Virus record (IMG/VR): IMGVR_UViG_2516143081_000005
DNA from: a virus
Taxonomy: Duplodnaviria > Heunggongvirae > Uroviricota > Caudoviricetes
Length of the DNA: 15,184 bases
Strand: one strand, 5' to 3'
Shown: positions 55 to 15,184 of the stretch, piece after piece
How the letters are laid out: every line of letters begins with the position of its first letter
Position numbering within the stretch: position 1 is the first letter of the stretch
Translations under genes and position numbers: made by a program
Notes under the pieces: generated by a model
Seen by the model: the letters and a program-made list of their open reading frames with translations, nothing else
What the model was told of the DNA's origin: nothing
The model's database searches: none

Positions 55-639
55 TTACTCCCTGACAGGGTTCGTAGGCCACTCAATATCAGGTGCAGTT
101 GATGTATCAACACGGTTCAGCAACACCCGATACTTTTTCCAGGCTTCCAGCAATGAGGTTTCTTCCTCCGTTGCGATTTCCAGATCTACAGCATCCTGAA
201 GTGGCGCAATATGCTCACTGGCTACCTGCATCAGGCTGTTTTTTATTTCTTCCGCCTCTCGGATCCGGAACAGTTTTTCTGCTTCTGCATCTTTCACCCA
301 GGCTGTGCCGTTCCACTTCTGAAACTCCCCTTCCGGCGATAACCAGGTAACATTTTCCGGTAACGGACCGAGTTCAGAAATAAATAACTCGTCCCCTGAC
401 GCTACGTCATAAACCGTTTTACCCCGATGGTCTTCAACGAGATGCCACGATGCCTCATCACTGTTGAAAACAGCCACAAAGCCAGCAGGAATATCTGGTG
501 GTGCAATATCGGTACTGTTTGCTGGCAGACCTGTATGAGGCGGAATATATGCATCACCTTCACCAATAAATTCATTAGTTCCGGCCAGCAGATTATAAAT
601 TTTTATGGTCCGTGCTTGTTCACTCATTCTGAATGCCAT
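55..639 (-). CDS. tfa: Tail fibre assembly protein (lambda Tfa-like, 194 aa)
   Basis: ORF translation [34 protein letters not shown]... is near-identical over its full length to lambda Tfa as recalled. ATG at 639-637 overlaps the upstream stop (TAATG). Confidence 0.9.
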
Positions 640-6014: not shown

Positions 6015-6441
6015 AAGCTGTGTGACGAAGTAACCACTCTTAACAGCATAACCAATTTTTTACGTACGTAAACCACTAAATGATATTTGCGAGAATGCTA
6101 CCGAGTATTGAAAACACCACTACAAATACATAAGCAAATCTCAACAAATAACCAACAAATAATTTCCAGTGTTATTTTTAGCCGATTTAAATTGAACCTT
6201 CAAATTATAGAGCACTTATAAATAACAGCCGTTAATATAAATTGGCTAATAGATTTATTTTTATTCAGCCAAGAGCTATAAATAGGATTCGATAGAAAAA
6301 AGTTCAGATAAAAATAGAGATCTACTTCACAAATCAAACGAGAAACCAAAACTTACATCTTGAAATAATCACATTGATTAGATGAATATTTATCGCGCAG
6401 TGACATCATTTTTTAATAATAGTTCAAAAAAAGGGCTCACG

Positions 6442-7539
6442 ATGAAAAAATTAACAGTGGCAATTTCTGCTGTAGCTGCATCAGTACTGATGGCGATGTC
6501 TGCTCAGGCAGCTGAAATTTATAATAAAGACAGTAACAAGCTGGATCTGTACGGGAAAGTTAATGCTAAGCACTACTTCTCCTCTAATGATGCAGATGAT
6601 GGTGATACTACTTATGCCCGTCTTGGCTTCAAAGGTGAAACCCAAATCAACGATCAGCTGACTGGTTTCGGTCAGTGGGAATATGAATTCAAAGGCAACC
6701 GCGCTGAATCTCAAGGTTCCTCCAAAGACAAAACCCGTCTTGCATTTGCAGGCCTGAAATTCGGTGACTACGGCTCAATCGATTACGGCCGTAACTACGG
6801 TGTAGCATACGACATCGGTGCGTGGACTGACGTTCTGCCAGAATTCGGTGGCGATACCTGGACCCAAACAGATGTGTTCATGACTGGTCGTACCACTGGT
6901 GTTGCAACCTATCGTAACAACGACTTCTTTGGTCTGGTTGATGGTCTGAACTTTGCTGCTCAGTACCAAGGCAAAAACGATCGTAGCGATTTCGATAACT
7001 ACACTGAAGGTAACGGTGATGGCTTCGGTTTCTCTGCTACCTATGAATACGAAGGATTCGGTATCGGTGCAACTTATGCGAAATCTGATCGTACCGACAC
7101 TCAAGTTAATGCAGGGAAAGTTCTTCCTGAAGTATTTGCTTCCGGTAAAAATGCAGAAGTTTGGGCCGCAGGTCTGAAATATGACGCTAACAACATTTAC
7201 CTGGCCACTACCTATTCTGAAACCCAGAATATGACTGTATTTGCTGATCACTTCGTTGCTAATAAAGCTCAAAACTTCGAAGCTGTTGCACAATATCAGT
7301 TCGATTTCGGTCTGCGTCCGTCCGTTGCTTACCTGCAATCTAAAGGTAAGGATCTTGGAGTATGGGGCGATCAGGACTTAGTCAAATATGTTGATGTAGG
7401 TGCAACCTATTACTTCAACAAAAATATGTCTACTTTCGTTGATTACAAAATCAACCTGCTTGACAAAAATGACTTCACTAAAGCACTCGGTGTAAGCACT
7501 GATGACATCGTTGCTGTAGGTCTGGTTTACCAGTTCTAA
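6442..7539 (+). CDS. nmpC: Outer-membrane general porin (OmpC/OmpF/PhoE family, NmpC-like), 365 aa, apparently intact
   Basis: [23 protein letters not shown] | [16 protein letters not shown]... has a signal peptide with AQA cleavage site, the porin N-terminal signature and the C-terminal ...VGLVYQF beta-barrel motif. ATG at 6442 preferred over the ORF-track start at 6382. Confidence 0.9.
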
Positions 7540-8338: not shown

Positions 8339-8697
8339 TCATTCCCCATTTCGGTGATGGTCAGTTCCAGCCTCCCACCTTTGGTAACAGGCATCTTCAC
8401 AACGCGGTAATCAACGACCTGAGCATCATCCAGCCAGAAACCTGCTTTAGTGAGTGCGTCAAAAGCGGCTTTTTGCAGATTATCCAGGTCACGGCGACGG
8501 CGATCCGGCATGTGGCACTCAATGCGGATTTTCACAGGCATAGCCAGGCCGATATCCAGCATTGCGTTTTTAATGATTCGGGCGACGTTATCGCGGTATG
8601 CCTGCCCCTCTGCGCTGACGTGCGTGCGCCCGCGATTATGGCGGTAATAGCGATTATTGCTCGGAGGCCAGGGTAATGTGATGCTGTAGGTATTCAC
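8335..8697 (-). CDS. rusA: Holliday junction resolvase RusA (120 aa)
   Basis: [43 protein letters not shown]... is the RusA family signature at the correct length. Confidence 0.9.
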
Positions 8698-8984
8698 GCC
8701 TTAATAACCCCCTCTTTCAGCCAGATAACCTGTGTTCTCGCCATACCTTCCAGCGCGCATTCTTTTGCATATGCAGCATCGACAAAATGTGTGCGGCGGT
8801 CGATTTCGTCGTGGCAGGCAGAACATGCAATGGTGGCAATCAGGTCTGGCGATTTGGTACCGGTGCCGCACAATCCAGTCAGCCGGATATGTGCCAGTAC
8901 AGACGTTTCAGGGTTGCCATTACATACGCCAGGGATTCTTACCTGGCATTCCCGACTACGCGCTGCTTTTCTCAAATCAGCCAT
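8694..8984 (-). CDS. ybcO: YbcO-like nin-region protein (DUF1364, putative nuclease, 96 aa)
   Basis: [35 protein letters not shown]...CSACHDEID is Cys/His-rich. ATG at 8984 is preceded by AGGAGG. ORF is open from 9023. Confidence 0.8.
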
Positions 8985-9147
8985 GATTCCTCCTTGCTGC
9001 CAGTCGCAACCATTTTTTATCAACCAGGCTGGCGGTATATCCGAGCAGTGTTGGTATTTCGGAAGGCTTCAGCTCCGGTTTACGCTTACGACGATTTGGT
9101 ACTCTGTAGATGTGTCCGTTCATGACACGAATAAGCGGTGTAGCCAT
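8977..9147 (-). CDS. ninE: NinE-like small protein (56 aa); not in the ORF track
   Basis: Manual translation [56 protein letters not shown]. Start overlaps the ybcN stop (TAATG); 3' end overlaps the ybcO start by 8 nt. Assignment by size and nin-region position; I could not recall the lambda NinE sequence reliably to confirm. Confidence 0.65.
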   Translation of the reverse strand: MATPLIRVMNGHIYRVPNRRKRKPELKPSEIPTLLGYTASLVDKKWLRLAARRNHG

Positions 9148-9602
9148 TACGCCTCCTGTTTGTCGCGGAGCTGCTGGAACTCGCAGCTCTGCGGAATAGT
9201 CAGGTGGCAGCCAATATTCATCGCCCAGGCTTCAACCTTACACAGGAAGACATACATCTCTCCGGTATCAAGATCGGAGGTATGGCGTAACGACTGGATA
9301 GTGGTGATATCACCGGTTACGACATCAACCAGGTCTTTGGTTTCATAACCGAGATATGTGTGTTTGAGAGCATCTTTTACCCAAGCTGGAGTGGCGAACG
9401 TTTTACCCTTGCTGATGAGGTATTCACTGATTTCGCTGTACCACATGTGGCTGAGTGCATTCTGGGAAAGACTGCGTCTCTCGCGCCACGGTTTAAGCAC
9501 CATGCGAAAGCATTTGCCGTCCTCCAGATAAGGCTGGATCTGCCGACCGATAGCGGTGAAGTTACCGCGATGCAATTTGATACCATCTTGTGGGAGGTTC
9601 AC
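9147..9602 (-). CDS. ybcN: NinB-family protein YbcN (151 aa), GTG start
   Basis: (M)[29 protein letters not shown]... GTG start at 9602 with GGAGG upstream. Size and position match YbcN/NinB. Confidence 0.8.
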
Positions 9603-9700
9603 GCTTCACCTCCGCAGAGATCAAACGCTGGATGCAAAATATCGCAGGTGCATTTCTGCATCTGTGAATGGAGAAGAGAGGTTGGATTGTATGTGCGCAT
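9599..9700 (-). CDS. ylcH: Small protein (33 aa), YlcH-like; not in the ORF track
   Basis: Manual translation [33 protein letters not shown]. Stop overlaps the ybcN GTG start (GTGA). Assignment by size and position from memory. Confidence 0.45.
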
Positions 9701-9796
9701 AAACGTCCCCGTTTAGCGCAGAAGTCACCGGAGTTGTTCAGGCTCCAATGGCATGATTATGGCTGGTTGATTATTGGAAATCAAATGTGCTGAAAA

Positions 9797-10306
9797 TTAG
9801 TCTGCCAAGTCTTCCTCAGTCGCAACTGGGTAATTCCAAATATCAAAAAAAGCTATAGCCTCCTGCCATTTGCTCCATAAGTTATCAAGTACTTGTGTAG
9901 GTTCCGTACTTTTAAAAACAGAATCAGCCGCATCACCGTTATGAACTTCCTCGTACAGTTCCATTATTAGCAGATTAACAAAGTACTGTTTCAACATTAA
10001 TGCCTGATTACCTTCTTTCTGCTGGCTATCCTGCTTGATGATCTCCATCGCCCGTACTAGGCACCTGATGATATCCGCTGCATCATTAACGCTCCATTCA
10101 GATCCGCGCTTATCTTTAGCTGATGAATTGGCTCTCTCAGCGCAAGCCTTTAAAGACTCATAAAGGTAAACTCTATTTTGTAGCTGCAGCGCTTTTTTTG
10201 ACGTGTACCAACTTGCAAGCGCCGACCCCGCTGCGGCTAATGTGCCAAACGCAGAAATACCTGCTGCTATTGCACTTAAGTCGGCACTGTCAAAGTTCCA
10301 CATCAT
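9797..10306 (-). CDS. Hypothetical protein (169 aa) with one N-terminal transmembrane helix and an acidic helical C-terminal domain
   Basis: MMWNFDSADLSAIAAGISAFGTLAAAGSALASWYTSKK... has a hydrophobic stretch around residues 10-33. ATG ATG start with AAGGTG Shine-Dalgarno 5 nt upstream. Own upstream region after a terminator. I recognise no family. Confidence 0.6.
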   Translation of the reverse strand: MMWNFDSADLSAIAAGISAFGTLAAAGSALASWYTSKKALQLQNRVYLYESLKACAERANSSAKDKRGSEWSVNDAADIIRCLVRAMEIIKQDSQQKEGNQALMLKQYFVNLLIMELYEEVHNGDAADSVFKSTEPTQVLDNLWSKWQEAIAFFDIWNYPVATEEDLAD

Positions 10307-10488
10307 CGTTACACCTTATATAAATACCCCTCAGTAATATCCAATAAGGTATGTGCACAATCAATATAATTTTATCCGTATCGGCACATAGCGATTTGAA
10401 CGCTACTGGTAATGGTATATTTTAGATTATATCGTCCAGTTTACAGCACCCGTATTTTATGAAATGGACTCGCATATTACCCAAAAAA

Positions 10489-10521
10489 TGCCAGCACTTC
10501 CGTCATCGTAGAATGCTGGCA
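10489..10521 (-). terminator. Rho-independent terminator on the minus strand downstream of the 107-aa gene
   Basis: tgccagca (10489-10496) pairs with tgctggca (10514-10521), with inner ttc/gaa pairing. On the minus strand it is followed by UUUUUUGG (reverse complement of 10481-10488). Confidence 0.5.
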
Positions 10522-10540
10522 GTATTTCTAACTAGTGACT

Positions 10541-10864
10541 TTATTGGAACAGATTCTGACGGAAATATGGTAACACTCGACTCCACTTATCATCCAGCCA
10601 CGGCTGGAATTTTACATGTGCCGTTTCTCTGGCGAGGATTGCTCGCGCTCTGTTGAGTATCTGGGGATATTCTTGCTCGATAGAAGTAAAGCGGCCGGCT
10701 TCGCGGTGCTCCGCAACCTGAAGTAGTGGAGTAACGTTCTGGCAGGCAGTTAACATCACATCACCTGCTCGCCATAACCAAGCACGTGCACAAAGTTTGT
10801 TATCAGTGAATTGTTTTGTGATTGGGTATTGTTGAACTGCTAGAACGAGAACGCCAGCATCCAT
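10541..10864 (-). CDS. Hypothetical protein (107 aa), no recognisable family
   Basis: ORF with ATG at 10864 and AGGGA about 7 nt upstream. It sits between the serine recombinase and the 169-aa membrane protein and is followed by its own terminator. Codon usage looks ordinary; no homology recognised. Confidence 0.5.
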   Translation of the reverse strand: MDAGVLVLAVQQYPITKQFTDNKLCARAWLWRAGDVMLTACQNVTPLLQVAEHREAGRFTSIEQEYPQILNRARAILARETAHVKFQPWLDDKWSRVLPYFRQNLFQ

Positions 10865-10975
10865 TGGCAGTCCCTATAGTAAAACCATAGCTCAGGACGC
10901 TTCGTTCAGGATAGATAATTTTATTGTACTTACCTAACTTTCTTACTATAGCACGGTTGAAAAAGTGATTATTAC

Positions 10976-12502
10976 TCAAAAATAAACCTCACCATCAACC
11001 ATATATTTGAGAGTACTTATCGCCTGCTGGGCGGATATTGTTTTCATTAAAGGATAGTGTTTAAAAACAATGCCATTCATAAAATAGATATCACAGGTTT
11101 TATTATCTGTATTGATTATGATTTTTTCGAATGTTTTATAGGCAAGTGTACGACATAGCTCTCGCCCATTTTTACTGGTTAAGTCAATAGCATGAAAATC
11201 ACCAAGTGAACTCACCGCTTTACTCTTCAAAGTTTTTAATGATACAGAAGCCCTTCGTAATTCCTTATCTAATACTCTGATTTTTTCTGCTATAGCGGTA
11301 ACTTCAGGCGCAACAGATAATGCAGCAATTAAATTATTAATTTTCATCTGGAGCTCAATAATTTTCAACTCTAAAGTTTCATTAGCATCTTTCTTGTTTT
11401 CAACTGGTTGGATTTTACTACAATTAAAAAGCAACTCATTAATGATATTATAATCAACCAAATCTCTCTTTATTGATGGCCTGTCACATCGATGCAGTCT
11501 TCTCATCGGACAAACATAATAGCCATGCAAACTTCCAGATACCGCATGAACAATCATGGTATTACCACAAGCCTCGCACTTCATAACTGTTCGAAGTAGA
11601 TTTATCAACATAGGATTTTTGCTACTATTGCTAATACCAAAAGGTGCCAACCGAATTTCCTGCACAGCGTAAAACAAATCATCTGATATGACTCTGGGAT
11701 AATAGCCAGCGATTTCACTTATTCCTTTACCTCTTGCACGATATGAAGGTACGCATATACCTATCAGAGCTTTATTCGCTAATAATTTTTCAATTACAGA
11801 AGGTCCCCATGCACTTTCTTTTCCTGAGAAATTCTTTACAGCATGATCATTTAAATACTTGGCTATTGCATTCAATGAGCGCCTTTCCATCCTGAGTTTA
11901 AAAATTAGCTCAATAGTTTTCACCCTGTCGGGGTCTGGAACAAAAGCCGTTCTTTTGTCATCCAATGAGAGCCATCTCGGACAAGACGCCGTCATAATCG
12001 TGCCTGACTCCAGTGCATCCTGCCGTTTTTTCTTCCATGATAATTTAACCCGACTTGACTTTATCTCGCTTTCTTCATTTGCCCTTTGTGCTATAAGTAT
12101 GGCTTTTATTAATGAATATGGCTCATTCAATGAGTCAATATTATAGACTGTATTATCGCAAAGAGTTATAACATCAATACCGTGATTCAAAATCAATTTC
12201 AGACGCTCAATCGCTTCACCGACTTTTTCTCTTGAAAGTCTGTCCAGACTTTCAACTAACAATGTAGTCCCTGGCAATATATAACCATGTTCTATAGCAT
12301 CTAAAAATTCCGAAAAAGCTCCTGATTGTGCATGCTTTCCATTGAATGCGCTTAACCCCAAATCTTCATACGTTACGGTATCAAGGTAATAATCACTATT
12401 TACCTTTAGCCATTCAGTAATAAGCCTTCTCTGGCGGTTTAATGAATCACCAGACATCTGACCTGGTGATGAAAATCGCATATATGCTATGGCTTTTTTC
12501 AT
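10976..12502 (-). CDS. ybcK: Large serine recombinase (resolvase/invertase catalytic domain plus recombinase domain and zinc-ribbon), 508 aa
   Basis: N-terminus MKKAIAYMRFSSPGQMSGDSLNRQRR has the serine-recombinase catalytic motif (Y-x-R-x-S-S...Q). C-terminal region has a Cys cluster (CEACGNT...YYVCPMRRLHRCDRP) typical of the zinc ribbon of large serine recombinases. Length matches YbcK. Confidence 0.9.
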   Translation of the reverse strand: MKKAIAYMRFSSPGQMSGDSLNRQRRLITEWLKVNSDYYLDTVTYEDLGLSAFNGKHAQSGAFSEFLDAIEHGYILPGTTLLVESLDRLSREKVGEAIERLKLILNHGIDVITLCDNTVYNIDSLNEPYSLIKAILIAQRANEESEIKSSRVKLSWKKKRQDALESGTIMTASCPRWLSLDDKRTAFVPDPDRVKTIELIFKLRMERRSLNAIAKYLNDHAVKNFSGKESAWGPSVIEKLLANKALIGICVPSYRARGKGISEIAGYYPRVISDDLFYAVQEIRLAPFGISNSSKNPMLINLLRTVMKCEACGNTMIVHAVSGSLHGYYVCPMRRLHRCDRPSIKRDLVDYNIINELLFNCSKIQPVENKKDANETLELKIIELQMKINNLIAALSVAPEVTAIAEKIRVLDKELRRASVSLKTLKSKAVSSLGDFHAIDLTSKNGRELCRTLAYKTFEKIIINTDNKTCDIYFMNGIVFKHYPLMKTISAQQAISTLKYMVDGEVYF

Positions 12503-12757
12503 GGTGACACCTGCTAAAGTATGCTTTTATAAACCTTAGTGGTGAGATATGATTTTTGTTTAATTTTTATTTAAAAAGACAATTAAGGTCACATTATCTT
12601 GAATATACAACAATAATCGTATTGCAATTTTCTTACACCATAATCTTGAAAGCACAAAAGAATGAATAAAAACTAAAGACATTAACAAAAAGCATAAAAC
12701 GAGGCCCATATAAATATACGAGCCTCCATATTTTAGTCGTTTAAAAACAAATTATTT

Positions 12758-13090
12758 TTAATGTGGTGTGCTTCGTGACAATAAATTAATAACCAACACA
12801 CCGGCACAAATCAACATCATGCCTATAATGGCTGGCAGGTCCAACCGTTGGCCGAAAAATCCCCATGATAGTAAGCTAATCAGGACAATACCGACTCCTG
12901 ACCAGATAGCATAAGCAATCCCTGTAGGAATATAAGCCAGCGTCTGAGCTAATAACCAGAATGATGCACAATAACAAATAATTGTACCAACAGATGGCCA
13001 TAACCGTGTAAAACCTTCTGAAAACTTCATTAAGGTTGTACCAATGACCTCTGCAAGTATTGCACCACCAAGATAAATATAAGGATTCAT
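12758..13090 (-). CDS. emrE: Small multidrug resistance (SMR) efflux transporter EmrE (110 aa)
   Basis: MNPYIYLGGAILAEVIGTTLMKFSEGFTRLWPSVGTIICYCASFWLLAQTLAYIPTGIAYAIWSGVGIVLISLLSW... is the EmrE sequence with four TM helices. ATG at 13090; ORF is open from 13144. Confidence 0.9.
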   Translation of the reverse strand: MNPYIYLGGAILAEVIGTTLMKFSEGFTRLWPSVGTIICYCASFWLLAQTLAYIPTGIAYAIWSGVGIVLISLLSWGFFGQRLDLPAIIGMMLICAGVLVINLLSRSTPH

Positions 13091-13157
13091 AGCATATTCT
13101 TTCCTGTTCAAACTGGAGAGAATTGTACTACAGTTTGAACTCAACTCACCTGTTTCA

Positions 13158-13460
13158 TCATTGTGTACCCATTGATGTTCTTTTATATACCCTCAATACC
13201 CGTTTCATCGCGGCACTCTGGCGACACTCCTTAAAAATCAAATTCGTGCTCACCTTTCCTTCCCATTCTTCTCTGGTAGCGAACCGATAATACACCGTTC
13301 GCCAGACCTTACCATCAACGACCAGGATTCCTGCCCGCGCCATTTTAGCCGCAGCCTGATTTATGCTGGTTACCGTTGCGCCTGTTACCGCGGCAACGTC
13401 CTGCGCACAGAATTTCTTATGAGTCCCCAGGTAATGAATAATTGCCTCTTTGCCCGTCAT
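13158..13460 (-). CDS. ren: Ren-like protein (100 aa)
   Basis: MTGKEAIIHYLGTHKKFCAQDVAAVTGATVTSINQAAAKMARAGILVVDGKVWRTVYYRFATREE... is near-identical to lambda Ren. Start overlaps the P stop (ATGA) as in lambda. Confidence 0.85.
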   Translation of the reverse strand: MTGKEAIIHYLGTHKKFCAQDVAAVTGATVTSINQAAAKMARAGILVVDGKVWRTVYYRFATREEWEGKVSTNLIFKECRQSAAMKRVLRVYKRTSMGTQ

Positions 13461-14050
13461 ACCCTTGCTCCTTTCAGCCCAAACTTAGCTTTGATTTCTG
13501 CGATCTTCGCCAGAGCCTGTGCACGATTTAGAGGTCTACCGCCCATGACAGGAAGTTGTTTTACTGGTTCAGGTATAGCCTCACCACGGTTAATTCGTGC
13601 GGTCATACAGGACAGTTCATCGGCAGCCTTGCGCCGTAATTCCGCGTCAGTCAACGCATTGGCCCGCATGTTCTGATACAGGTTGGTAACCAGCCAGTAG
13701 TGCGCGTTTGATTTCCACGGATAAGACTCTGCATCCGGATACAGCCCGCGCTTCCGGCAATACTCGTAAACCATATCAACCAGCTCGCTGGCGTTTGGCA
13801 GCCCGGCGGTAACGGATGCTTCTTCCCGGCACCAGGCGACAAACTGCCCGGGTGATGGCAGGAATGGTCGATTCTGCCGACGGGCTACGCGCATTCCAGC
13901 GTTAACCTGTTCCATTGTGGTGATCCCGTTTTCCCGAAAAGCCAGCACCCACTGGCGGCGGATTTCGTTCAGTTCATTCTGGTCACGGTTAGCCAGGCTC
14001 GCCGGGAAAGTTGCCAGTAACTGGCTGAACACACCGTTGATGATCTGCGC
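13457..14050 (-). pseudogene. peaD: Replication protein P (helicase loader) C-terminal fragment, lacking about the first 36 residues
   Basis: From ...[26 protein letters not shown]... to the C-terminus the translation matches lambda P. The first 28 residues of the ORF ([28 protein letters not shown]) are unrelated and are encoded antisense to the integrase 5' end. Confidence 0.8.
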
Positions 14051-14128
14051 TATGCCTCGTATTCGCTCCCGGGCGGGAAACGAATTAAGGAATCTCTTGG
14101 CACAAAGGACAAGCGGCAAGCTCAGGAG

Positions 14129-15184
14129 TTGCACGACAAGCGAAAAGCAGAACTCTGGCGAGTAGAAAAGCTAGGGGATTTACCTGATGTCACTTTTGAA
14201 GAGGCCTGCCTAAGATGGCTTGAGGAAAAAGCTGATAAAAAATCTCTCGATTCAGATAAAAGCCGGATTGAGTTCTGGCTTGAACATTTTGAGGGTATAA
14301 GGCTTAAAGATATCTCGGAGGCAAAGATTTACTCTGCTGTAAGCAGAATGCATAACAGAAAGACGAAAGAAATATGGAAACAGAAAGTTCAGGCCGCCAT
14401 CAGGAAAGGTAAAGAACTGCCTGTTTATGAACCAAAGCCAGTATCAACTCAGACAAAGGCAAAGCATCTTGCCATGATAAAGGCCATTCTCCGTGCTGCA
14501 GAACGCGACTGGAAGTGGCTGGAAAAAGCGCCTGTCATCAAGATACCAGCGGTCAGAAACAAGCGAGTCAGATGGCTGGAAAAGGAGGAAGCAAAACGCC
14601 TTATTGATGAGTGCCCCGAACCACTGAAATCTGTCGTCAAGTTTGCGCTGGCAACTGGTCTGAGAAAGTCGAACATCATAAATCTGGAATGGCAACAAAT
14701 CGACATGCAGCGACGAGTTGCCTGGGTGAATCCAGAAGAGAGCAAATCAAACCGCGCCATTGGTGTGGCGCTAAACGATACCGCCTGTAAAGTGTTGCGT
14801 GATCAAATAGGCAAGCATCACAAATGGGTGTTTGTACATACCAAGGCGGCTAAGCGAGCAGATGGAACATCAACGCCTGCGGTCAGGAAGATGCGCATCG
14901 ACAGCAAGACATCATGGCTATCAGCTTGTCGTCGTGCAGGAATTGAAGATTTCCGTTTCCATGACCTCAGACACACCTGGGCAAGCTGGCTGATTCAGTC
15001 AGGCGTCCCATTATCAGTGCTTCAGGAAATGGGCGGATGGGAGTCCATAGAAATGGTTCGTAGGTATGCTCACCTTGCGCCTAATCATTTGACAGAGCAT
15101 GCGAGGAAAATAGACGACATTTTTGGTGATAATGTCCCAAATATGTCCCACTCTGGAATTATGGAGGATATAAAGAAGGCGTAA
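14129..15184 (+). CDS. intD: Tyrosine integrase (P22/DLP12 IntD-type), 5'-truncated; probably a pseudogene or expressed from a non-ATG start
   Basis: C-terminal catalytic region ...[41 protein letters not shown]... carries the R..H-x-x-R...Y signature. In-frame homology extends upstream to about 14051 ([23 protein letters not shown]). There is no in-frame ATG or GTG between the stop at 14018-14020 and the TTG at 14129. Stop at 15182-15184. Confidence 0.8.

Follow-up and report, generated by a model that had tools for sequence, protein, structure and literature searches.

The AT-rich emrE-ybcK block of a DLP12-type prophage: probably a mosaic of accessory genes in a slot between ren and ninB

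Introduction

Does a large serine recombinase gene inside a prophage of tyrosine-integrase type mark a mobile element nested in that prophage? The question is raised by a 15,184-nt stretch of DNA from a virus of the Caudoviricetes (IMG/VR record IMGVR_UViG_2516143081_000005; the whole stretch is called the window below), in which an AT-rich block at 10865-13144 carries ybcK, encoding a 508-aa recombinase, and emrE, encoding an efflux pump of the small multidrug resistance (SMR) family. The initial annotation of the window, made from the sequence, proposed that the recombinase may mark a nested mobile element or an invertible segment carrying emrE and adjacent cargo genes. The genes and their position are already known, being annotated in K-12 and in published phage genomes. 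Our analysis makes it likely that the block is an accessory-gene slot between ren and ninB, filled with a mosaic of separately acquired modules, and not one bounded element.

Boundaries and contents of the ren-ninB interval

The variable region ends near 9786 and near 13187 whether or not a prophage has ybcK. Homology to prophages with other cargo stops at 13185-13189, inside the 3' end of ren, and every comparison regains homology from 9771-9786 into ybcN. The evidence on the context of ybcK comes from 39 listed carrier rows from E. coli genomes and from 80 IMG/VR phage contigs, insertions of insertion sequences (IS) being excepted. In all 80 contigs the upstream side of ybcK is ren-emrE-ylcJ, apart from these IS insertions. 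On the downstream side, homology breaks at 10967 in 20 contigs, at 10758 in nine, at 10548-10559 in 18 and at 10490 in 14, with the remaining breakpoints at 10925, 10725, 10707 and ~10648, that is, at no fewer than eight different positions overall. Among the carriers compared, homology ends between +9 and +427 from the ybcK stop codon. Carriers of a discrete element would share the same two ends, and here there are at least eight downstream ones. The precise boundaries expected of a nested element are thus not observed, as the downstream ends vary and the outer limits are common to ybcK-free prophages.

At least ten alternative contents are found between ren and ybcN within these common outer boundaries, and the ren-ninB interval serves as a hotspot for cargo and defence genes in general. 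Together with ybcK, the slot also holds ybcL and ybcM (K-12), an alpha/beta hydrolase (phage Perceval), BstA (strain A16), a 260-aa Cys-rich protein, a 118-aa protein and other small proteins, or nothing (O157). Slots without ybcK, seen in matches H48, H49, H53 and H54 and in locus L005 6817-8319, hold Kiwa (KwaA/KwaB), a HEPN protein, a SNIPE-associated pseudogene, a TagO-like protein and small hypothetical proteins. The 309-aa abortive-infection protein BstA of A16 (L001 9952-10881; PADLOC E = 4e-121) occupies the position of the window gene at 9797-10306; it has been described downstream of cI (PMC8585504). The two genes that follow ybcK in the window, an open reading frame (ORF) with the C-terminal domain of a P22-type antirepressor (P22AR_C) and a cargo gene of PHROG 1779, are present without ybcK in strain JNEC-KY203. 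Moreover, a 202-aa version of the P22AR_C ORF occurs in a ybcK-free prophage (L005), where homology to the window stops at 10851.

In having a fixed position with alternative, mostly AT-rich defence or moron genes, the slot is similar to the P2/P4 hotspots (PMC9122126) and to the cI-N region with rexAB or bstA (PMC8585504), but its genome position differs from both. No paper naming the ren-ninB slot as a hotspot was found in a literature search that was not exhaustive.

The features of the slot and its flanks are the following.

13158-13460, minus strand: ren, 100 aa; PHROG 142, Ren-like exclusion protein, E = 1e-41; "protein ren" in RefSeq; the final conserved phage gene on that side of the slot
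13091-13157, minus strand: region upstream of emrE; 13-nt inverted repeat with a 9-nt spacer at 13106-13140, just 5' of the emrE ribosome-binding site
12758-13090, minus strand: emrE, 110 aa, ATG start; PF00893, E = 2e-35
12701-12726, minus strand: terminator-like hairpin, an 11-bp stem followed by GTTTTATG, 3' of emrE and overlapping the start of ylcJ; from a consensus scan, a pattern match only
12560-12709, minus strand: ylcJ, small ORF for a hydrophobic 49-aa protein; PF23688 (YlcJ), E = 2e-30
10976-12502, minus strand: ybcK, 508 aa, intact; Pfam Resolvase, Recombinase and Zn_ribbon_recom
10865-10975, no strand: spacer downstream of ybcK, 111 bp; repeated hexamers at chance level
10541-10864, minus strand: ORF with the P22-type antirepressor C-terminal domain, 107 aa; PF10548, E = 1e-12; PHROG 7640, E = 2e-65, full length
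9797-10306, minus strand: exchangeable cargo gene, 169 aa; PHROG 1779, E = 1e-102
9771-9786, no strand: nin-side boundary of the variable slot; BLAST breakpoints in L001-L006, including prophages without ybcK
9147-9602, minus strand: ybcN, NinB/Orf homologue; PHROG 72, E = 4e-52; ybcN in RefSeq; opens the conserved nin genes at the other end of the slot

The 169-aa protein encoded at 9797-10306 has no match in Pfam or PADLOC, and PADLOC gave no match for YbcK, EmrE, YlcJ or the P22AR_C ORF either.

These modules could be combined as follows. emrE would be a self-contained moron, with its own upstream region, a terminator-like hairpin and expression in the lysogen, and would give the host a proton-coupled small multidrug exporter. 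ylcJ-ybcK would represent a complete, catalytically intact large serine recombinase module under selection, oriented with the delayed-early rightward operon. In a lysogen, ybcK would be shielded behind the emrE hairpin and the Rho-dependent terminator reported in the K-12 ybcK leader (PMC4150792), and, because these two lie ahead of it, would be made mainly under active phage antitermination. The antirepressor C-terminal-domain ORF and one exchangeable gene, here that of PHROG 1779, would come next. Cargo in the slot is probably exchanged when lambdoid phages recombine, by a general or illegitimate mechanism, at the conserved flanks near 13187 and 9786, and YbcK-mediated site-specific recombination would not be the route of cargo turnover. 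The block is carried by complete lambdoid phages having their own tyrosine integrase (Int) and excisionase (Xis), e.g. Perceval.

Composition

The GC content of 10865-13144 is 0.360, versus 0.488-0.547 in the flanking phage genes (ybcN 0.507, rusA 0.532, ren 0.488, P 0.547, i.e. 49-55%). By segment, it is 0.365 in ybcK (0.30 at third codon positions), 0.271 in the ylcJ region and 0.405 in emrE. The windowed calculation thus confirms the foreign-looking, AT-rich composition that the initial annotation had judged by eye. The extent given there, ~9700-13150, is right for the sharp drop, which is limited to ~10750-13250, but not for 9700-10750, which is only mildly AT-rich (0.43-0.48 in ORFs). The block was also described there, correctly, as an interruption of the ren-nin gene order, with emrE and ybcK lying between ren and ninB/ybcN.

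YbcK is a large serine recombinase maintained by selection

The assignment of the 508-aa product to YbcK-like large serine recombinases is confirmed by three domains, the catalytic residues and the fold. The Pfam matches are PF00239 (Resolvase, E = 9e-19, residues 4-161), PF07508 (Recombinase, E = 2e-14) and PF13408 (Zn_ribbon_recom, E = 8e-8). In the alignment of 21 YbcK relatives, with identity down to 29%, residues R9, S11, D87, R88 and R91 are invariant, and so are the zinc-binding C309, C312, C331 and C339. The AlphaFold2 model (pLDDT 81) contains the catalytic domain, the long helix E, the recombinase domain and the zinc ribbon, after which predicted helices 346-364, 369-395 and 401-429 would form a coiled coil.

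The top Foldseek matches of YbcK are full-length SprA (9dxd/9dxh, E = 2e-18 to 1e-16), PhiC31 integrase (9tep, 8e-14) and Bxb1 integrase (9iu2, 1e-13), and the family profile matches SprA, the integrase of SPbeta, with E = 1e-16. A single-sequence search of the PDB with YbcK gave no match, profile and fold searches being needed. YbcK and the SprA, PhiC31 and Bxb1 integrases are alike in domain order and fold, while their sequence identity is only 14-19%. They differ in setting: each of the three lies beside its own attP at the edge of the integrated phage and is the sole integrase of that phage, whereas YbcK is internal to a prophage and accompanies a tyrosine integrase, with no att site or directionality factor identified. 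In every carrier row listed or locus examined phage genes flank ybcK on both sides, so that the gene is not at the edge of an element.

Among six ybcK alleles from E. coli and phages, the ratio of nonsynonymous to synonymous substitution rates (dN/dS) is 0.06-0.16 (most pairs lie below 0.1; maximum dS 0.18), and the 508-codon ORF is intact in all six. These ratios show that ybcK is kept by purifying selection and is not decaying. YbcK is probably an active enzyme. The literature searched contained no biochemical or genetic work on the protein, which is called "function-unknown" there (PMC7181518).

Search for recombination sites around the block

The spacer downstream of ybcK (10865-10975) contains CTATAG and TCAGGA twice each, and these repeats had been proposed as a possible part of a recombination site. 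The motifs are indeed present, but at chance level: there are two repeated hexamers, compared with a mean of 2.5 in first-order Markov simulations (P(>=2) = 0.63), and other 111-nt windows of the island have a mean of 2.4. Moreover, the spacer is kept to a variable extent, up to +9..+39 in K-12, +66 in O157 and ~+215 in Perceval. Since K-12 retains just 9-39 nt past the ybcK stop codon, ybcK is not obligatorily paired with the 111-bp spacer.

Direct repeats, inverted repeats and att-like dyads were sought in 9600-13400 at all candidate boundaries, and only short AT-rich matches at chance level were found. The best inverted pairs are at most 16 nt long or at most 72% complementary and lie in AT-rich DNA. 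The flanking repeats that the initial annotation suggested looking for around 9700-13150 are thus not seen at a significant level.

Distribution of ybcK in E. coli genomes and phages

ybcK is present in 1427 of 5426 complete E. coli genomes (about a quarter), at a median of one and a maximum of two places per genome, with one plasmid match. The region 10852-12757 is matched across at least 80% of its length in 1400 genomes. All 39 carrier rows listed consist of one collinear piece each, with the same ren-emrE-ylcJ context. With at most two copies of ybcK per genome, IS-like proliferation was rejected. So was integration of the whole phage via an attP adjacent to ybcK, the gene lying away from the prophage ends in all carriers listed or examined.

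No inverted high-scoring segment pairs (HSPs) were found across window positions 8500-14200 in the 80 phage contigs. To look for empty sites, an artificial query, in which the ybcN block was joined to ylcJ-emrE, was run against the 5426 genomes. No clean empty site in the prophage context was found among them; the query detected one deletion lineage only (1-2 of 5426 genomes), in which 52 codons of ybcK are left. The presence/absence polymorphism with precise boundaries that the initial annotation suggested looking for is not seen in a prophage context in this set; a presence/absence difference does exist between K-12 and the fliE-linked remnant described below.

Four complete lambdoid genomes, Perceval (LF82 prophage 2), Turner, 1W and Lambda_4C10, have ren-emrE-ybcK in the same place, with YbcK 97-99% identical. 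They differ from the window in being complete, in having intact tyrosine Int and Xis, and in the cargo after ybcK, which in Perceval is the alpha/beta hydrolase. The proposal of a nested element resembles the transposons Tn4451 with TnpX and Tn5397 with TndX, in which a large serine recombinase moves a small element with a resistance gene. The TnpX and TndX elements have defined ends, excise as circles and occur in several contexts. Unlike them, ybcK has undefined ends, a single context and one or two copies per genome.

The K-12 allele and the fliE-linked remnant

The genes emrE, ylcJ and ybcK of DLP12 in K-12 lie between ren and ybcN in the order seen in the window. The two ybcK alleles differ with dN 0.012 and dS 0.18, and the common block is ~96% identical at the nucleotide level. 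Downstream of ybcK the contents diverge: K-12 has a private segment of 310 bp and then ybcL and ybcM, the window the 111-bp spacer, the P22AR_C ORF and the PHROG 1779 gene. K-12 also has IS3 in ren, which is absent from ren of the window, while a deletion between P and intD (see below) is the window's own.

The 310-bp segment, found in 675 genomes, occurs solely beside ybcK. It contains a 50-bp palindrome, 200-250 bp downstream of ybcK, consisting of a perfect 13-bp inverted repeat (AAAATACGTGACA / TGTCACGTATTTT) with a 24-nt spacer (K-12-type locus L002, 11277-11326). This candidate has the size of a serine-integrase site. The palindrome is absent from the window, and matches to its half-site there are not above chance.

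A remnant with the order porin-ybcM-ybcL-emrE, without ylcJ-ybcK, lies between yedK and fliE in 2626 of 5426 E. coli genomes (e.g. L007 1899-5342 and L022 3318-6762). It also lacks quuD-ybcN and everything else outside porin..emrE, and its emrE-ybcL spacer is ~75% identical to K-12. The ylcJ-ybcK difference of 2.07 kb between the remnant and K-12 could be an old insertion or a deletion; given the other losses of the remnant and the ~75% identity of its spacer, the two are indistinguishable. If it was a deletion, the host kept emrE, ybcL, ybcM and the porin gene and dropped ybcK; YbcK would then seem to have a phage-side or selfish role. In strain HH45, the flanks are K-12-like (ybcL/ybcM and emrE, 98-99%), but the spacer is diverged, a pattern that suggests gene conversion between the two loci. 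PhiR70_1 was considered as a closer empty site and rejected, being K-12-like.

Relatives of YbcK in other contexts

Some relatives of YbcK are located at prophage ends beside tail-fibre or tail-fibre-assembly genes, ssrA or lepA; others follow yedK directly, and still others lie beside umuDC. Association of the family with tRNA or tmRNA genes is limited to one of 26 loci, which is near ssrA. Like ybcK, a relative from Pantoea (42% identity) is flanked in a lambdoid prophage by the replication genes on one side and Q on the other. No conserved partner or upstream DNA was found: none of the DNA matches in other genera extends 5' of the ybcK start codon, each beginning either at the ORF or within it.

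In Mixta, Serratia, Leclercia, Rahnella, Erwinia and Klebsiella, AT-rich islands are headed by recombinases of a 541-aa subfamily with 37-39% identity to YbcK (L039-L047, with the recombinase gene at 10001-11527). Between Mixta, Serratia, Leclercia and Rahnella, island identity is 92-96%, with homology setting in 78 bp ahead of the recombinase start codon. AbiTii-domain genes lie downstream of the recombinase gene in Mixta and Erwinia, the two loci scanned.

Two relatives with 50-52% identity (L026 8932-11524 and L029 9107-11524) immediately follow the SRAP gene yedK and border on umuDC or phage-tail DNA. Their chromosomal neighbourhood is the same as that of the fliE-linked remnant of E. coli.

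On a plasmid- or ICE-like contig of Citrobacter koseri (L017 6145-9530; ICE, integrative and conjugative element), a relative with 49% identity is divergent from a 555-aa gene with a faint Shufflon_N match. An invertase role of this relative is a possibility in that context, judging from its neighbour.

Alternative explanations

Several observations weigh against a mosaic slot in which YbcK is one module among others. Strong purifying selection on an integrase-type enzyme means that it acts on some DNA site, and none was located in the window. The sites of large serine recombinases, about 40-50 bp long, can share as little as a 2-bp core, so that the repeat searches are weak tests and missing repeats do not exclude sites. 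The fixed left context, the variable cargo after ybcK and the fixed right boundary also fit an island with its integrase at the left edge. Relatives at 37-60% identity occupy typical integrase positions at the edges of prophages or islands, and in the one locus of the 541-aa subfamily that was checked (L039, Mixta) the island is inserted in the type IV pilus ATPase gene hofB. The fliE-linked remnant has an emrE-ybcL spacer of 66 bp where K-12 has the 2.07 kb of ylcJ, ybcK and the private 310 bp, and an imperfect 9-nt direct repeat (GTTTCTAAA / GTTTTTAGA) lies at both K-12 indel junctions. Finally, promoter-like sites are not above shuffled sequences (10 versus 12.3 expected), and the autonomy of emrE therefore rests on the literature.

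If ybcK were the left-edge integrase of an island made up of ybcK and the downstream cargo, integrated between emrE/ylcJ and ybcN, the island could excise or exchange cargo. Relatives with such a location (the hofB islands with AbiTii and homology from 78 bp upstream, and those beside yedK, ssrA and lepA at prophage ends), the AT-rich composition and the constancy of the left context and of the right boundary near 9786, with variable cargo between them, agree with this. But the same right boundary is found in ybcK-free prophages, the cargo junctions are at eight or more positions and not at one site, JNEC-KY203 has the same cargo without ybcK, no repeats were found, and the 5426 genomes contain no clean empty site, only the internal deletion with 52 ybcK codons. 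Such an island is quite unlikely; of the proposal that the recombinase marks a nested mobile element, the location of the relatives and the ylcJ-ybcK indel keep the idea alive, while common ends, repeats and a clean empty site within a prophage are missing. A smaller unit, a single-gene cassette of ~2.07 kb (ylcJ, ybcK and ~310 bp) that entered a DLP12 ancestor between emrE and ybcL, the window carrying a derivative without the downstream end of the cassette, is also an unlikely explanation. It would account for the 66-bp spacer in the 2626 genomes with the remnant, for the 9-nt direct repeat at the two K-12 junctions and for the palindrome of serine-integrase-site size in the K-12-specific 310 bp; besides, the homology of relatives between genera is limited to the ORF and ~70-85 bp upstream. 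Still, a third deletion is equally plausible in a remnant with other losses, and with a spacer ~75% identical to K-12 the junction is not resolvable. Inspection of the sequences also shows that the inner segment ends lack dyad symmetry rebuilding an attP. Moreover, in E. coli ybcK is single-copy and confined to one context, and ylcJ has no counterpart beside the relatives elsewhere.

An invertible segment or phase switch, in which YbcK would flip an adjacent promoter- or gene-bearing segment as Gin, Pin and Hin do, is extremely improbable. Some relatives follow tail-fibre and tail-fibre-assembly genes directly, a position typical of Gin and Pin, one is divergent from the gene with the faint Shufflon_N match, and serine recombinases of E. 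coli cryptic prophages are reported to invert DNA (PMC12529663). But no inverted repeats bound the segment (the best pairs being those described above), inverted HSPs are absent from the 80 contigs, all 39 listed carrier rows are collinear, and YbcK has the integrase architecture, not the ~190-aa invertase form. The invertible segment suggested in the initial annotation is thus largely refuted. It is very unlikely, too, that ybcK is an inert relic, a hitch-hiking integrase gene decaying without present function. Its silencing by Rho in K-12, its absence from the host-retained remnant that kept emrE, ybcL, ybcM and the porin gene, the lack of cognate sites among those sought, and the IS elements or deletions that occasionally strike it would be expected of a relic. 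Against this stand the low dN/dS with intact ORFs in six alleles, the catalytic and zinc-binding residues invariant down to 29% identity, and the presence of ybcK in complete lambdoid phage genomes. On a further reading, itself rather unlikely, YbcK may be an active second site-specific recombinase, kept in the lambdoid delayed-early operon and acting on unrecognised sites; its site may be the 50-bp palindrome downstream of ybcK in K-12-type alleles, or may lie in the host or in a competing phage.

The emrE and ylcJ modules

A mosaic of separately acquired modules remains the reading that we prefer, and two of these modules, emrE and ylcJ, require some corrections of the gene map. The SMR efflux pump is EmrE, as had been proposed: besides the PF00893 match (E = 2e-35), residues 1-110 give a full-length match to the solved EmrE structure 3b5d (E = 1e-69). 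The protein has the four-helix domain across its 110 aa and the membrane-embedded Glu at position 14, in GGAILAEVIG, as expected of EmrE. The end at 13144 assigned to emrE earlier belongs to a TTG-extended ORF, the real gene being 12758-13090. In phage Perceval (LF82 prophage) emrE has been reported as a moron expressed in the lysogen (10.1101/2022.10.28.514194). The inverted repeat at 13106-13140, which follows the stop codon of ren and precedes the ribosome-binding site of emrE, recurs in K-12 and in the fliE-linked emrE copy, and may act as a terminator or form a structure in the 5' untranslated region. Homology with the fliE-linked emrE copy extends to 13167.

ylcJ, a gene overlooked in the initial annotation, is situated between emrE and ybcK. 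With its flanks it makes up a 255-nt leader of ybcK with 27% GC. It is frameshifted in strain A16 and shorter in O157, and no ylcJ homologue was found beside YbcK relatives outside Escherichia.

Identity and defect of the prophage

The window is a DLP12-type lambdoid prophage, defective and given on the strand opposite to the K-12 convention. It is matched by megablast in nearly all E. coli genomes, and 9147-13460 is 100% identical to E. coli 88-3493. The minus-strand gene order in close relatives (RefSeq) is P, ren, emrE, ylcJ, ybcK, variable genes, a small ORF, ybcN, ninE, ybcO, rusA, ylcG, quuD, and the block is syntenic with the K-12, O157 and A16 prophages annotated with emrE, ylcJ and ybcK. 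The defect is located at a single junction.

14051/14052, no strand: deletion junction; 5'-truncated P fused to intD, which lacks its first 10 codons

In the alignment with strain A16, window positions 13401-14052 correspond to L001 13942-14593, and 14051-15184 to L001 21494-22627. The deletion has removed O, cII, cro, cI and the recombination genes down to a partial helix-turn-helix pseudogene beside intD, all of which are present in A16. Due to this deletion, which is the cause of the defect, the prophage is cryptic and its tyrosine integrase is probably not made.

Two further features were observed elsewhere in the window. The nmpC-type porin gene at 6382-7539 (plus strand) is an uninterrupted ORF, 385 aa from the first ATG; its K-12 counterpart is disrupted by IS5. 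The sole Rfam match in the whole window is IS009 RNA at 98-296 (minus strand; 228 bits, E = 2e-56), far from the block.

Implications

As a nested element is unsupported and the genes come from a much-studied prophage remnant, the finding as initially described matters little. What deserves attention is that ybcK is kept in roughly one in four E. coli genomes, and also in complete lambdoid phages equipped with their own Int and Xis, while its substrate is apparently known to nobody. If YbcK is indeed an active second recombinase, it could provide an alternative integration route, or cargo capture and exchange at the ren-ninB hotspot, and an E. coli-native serine integrase with defined sites would be of interest to phage biologists and genome engineers. 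The ren-ninB slot itself carries drug efflux (emrE) or phage defence (BstA, Kiwa, HEPN) depending on the strain, which makes it useful for mining defence genes and for tracing how a resistance pump travels with phages.

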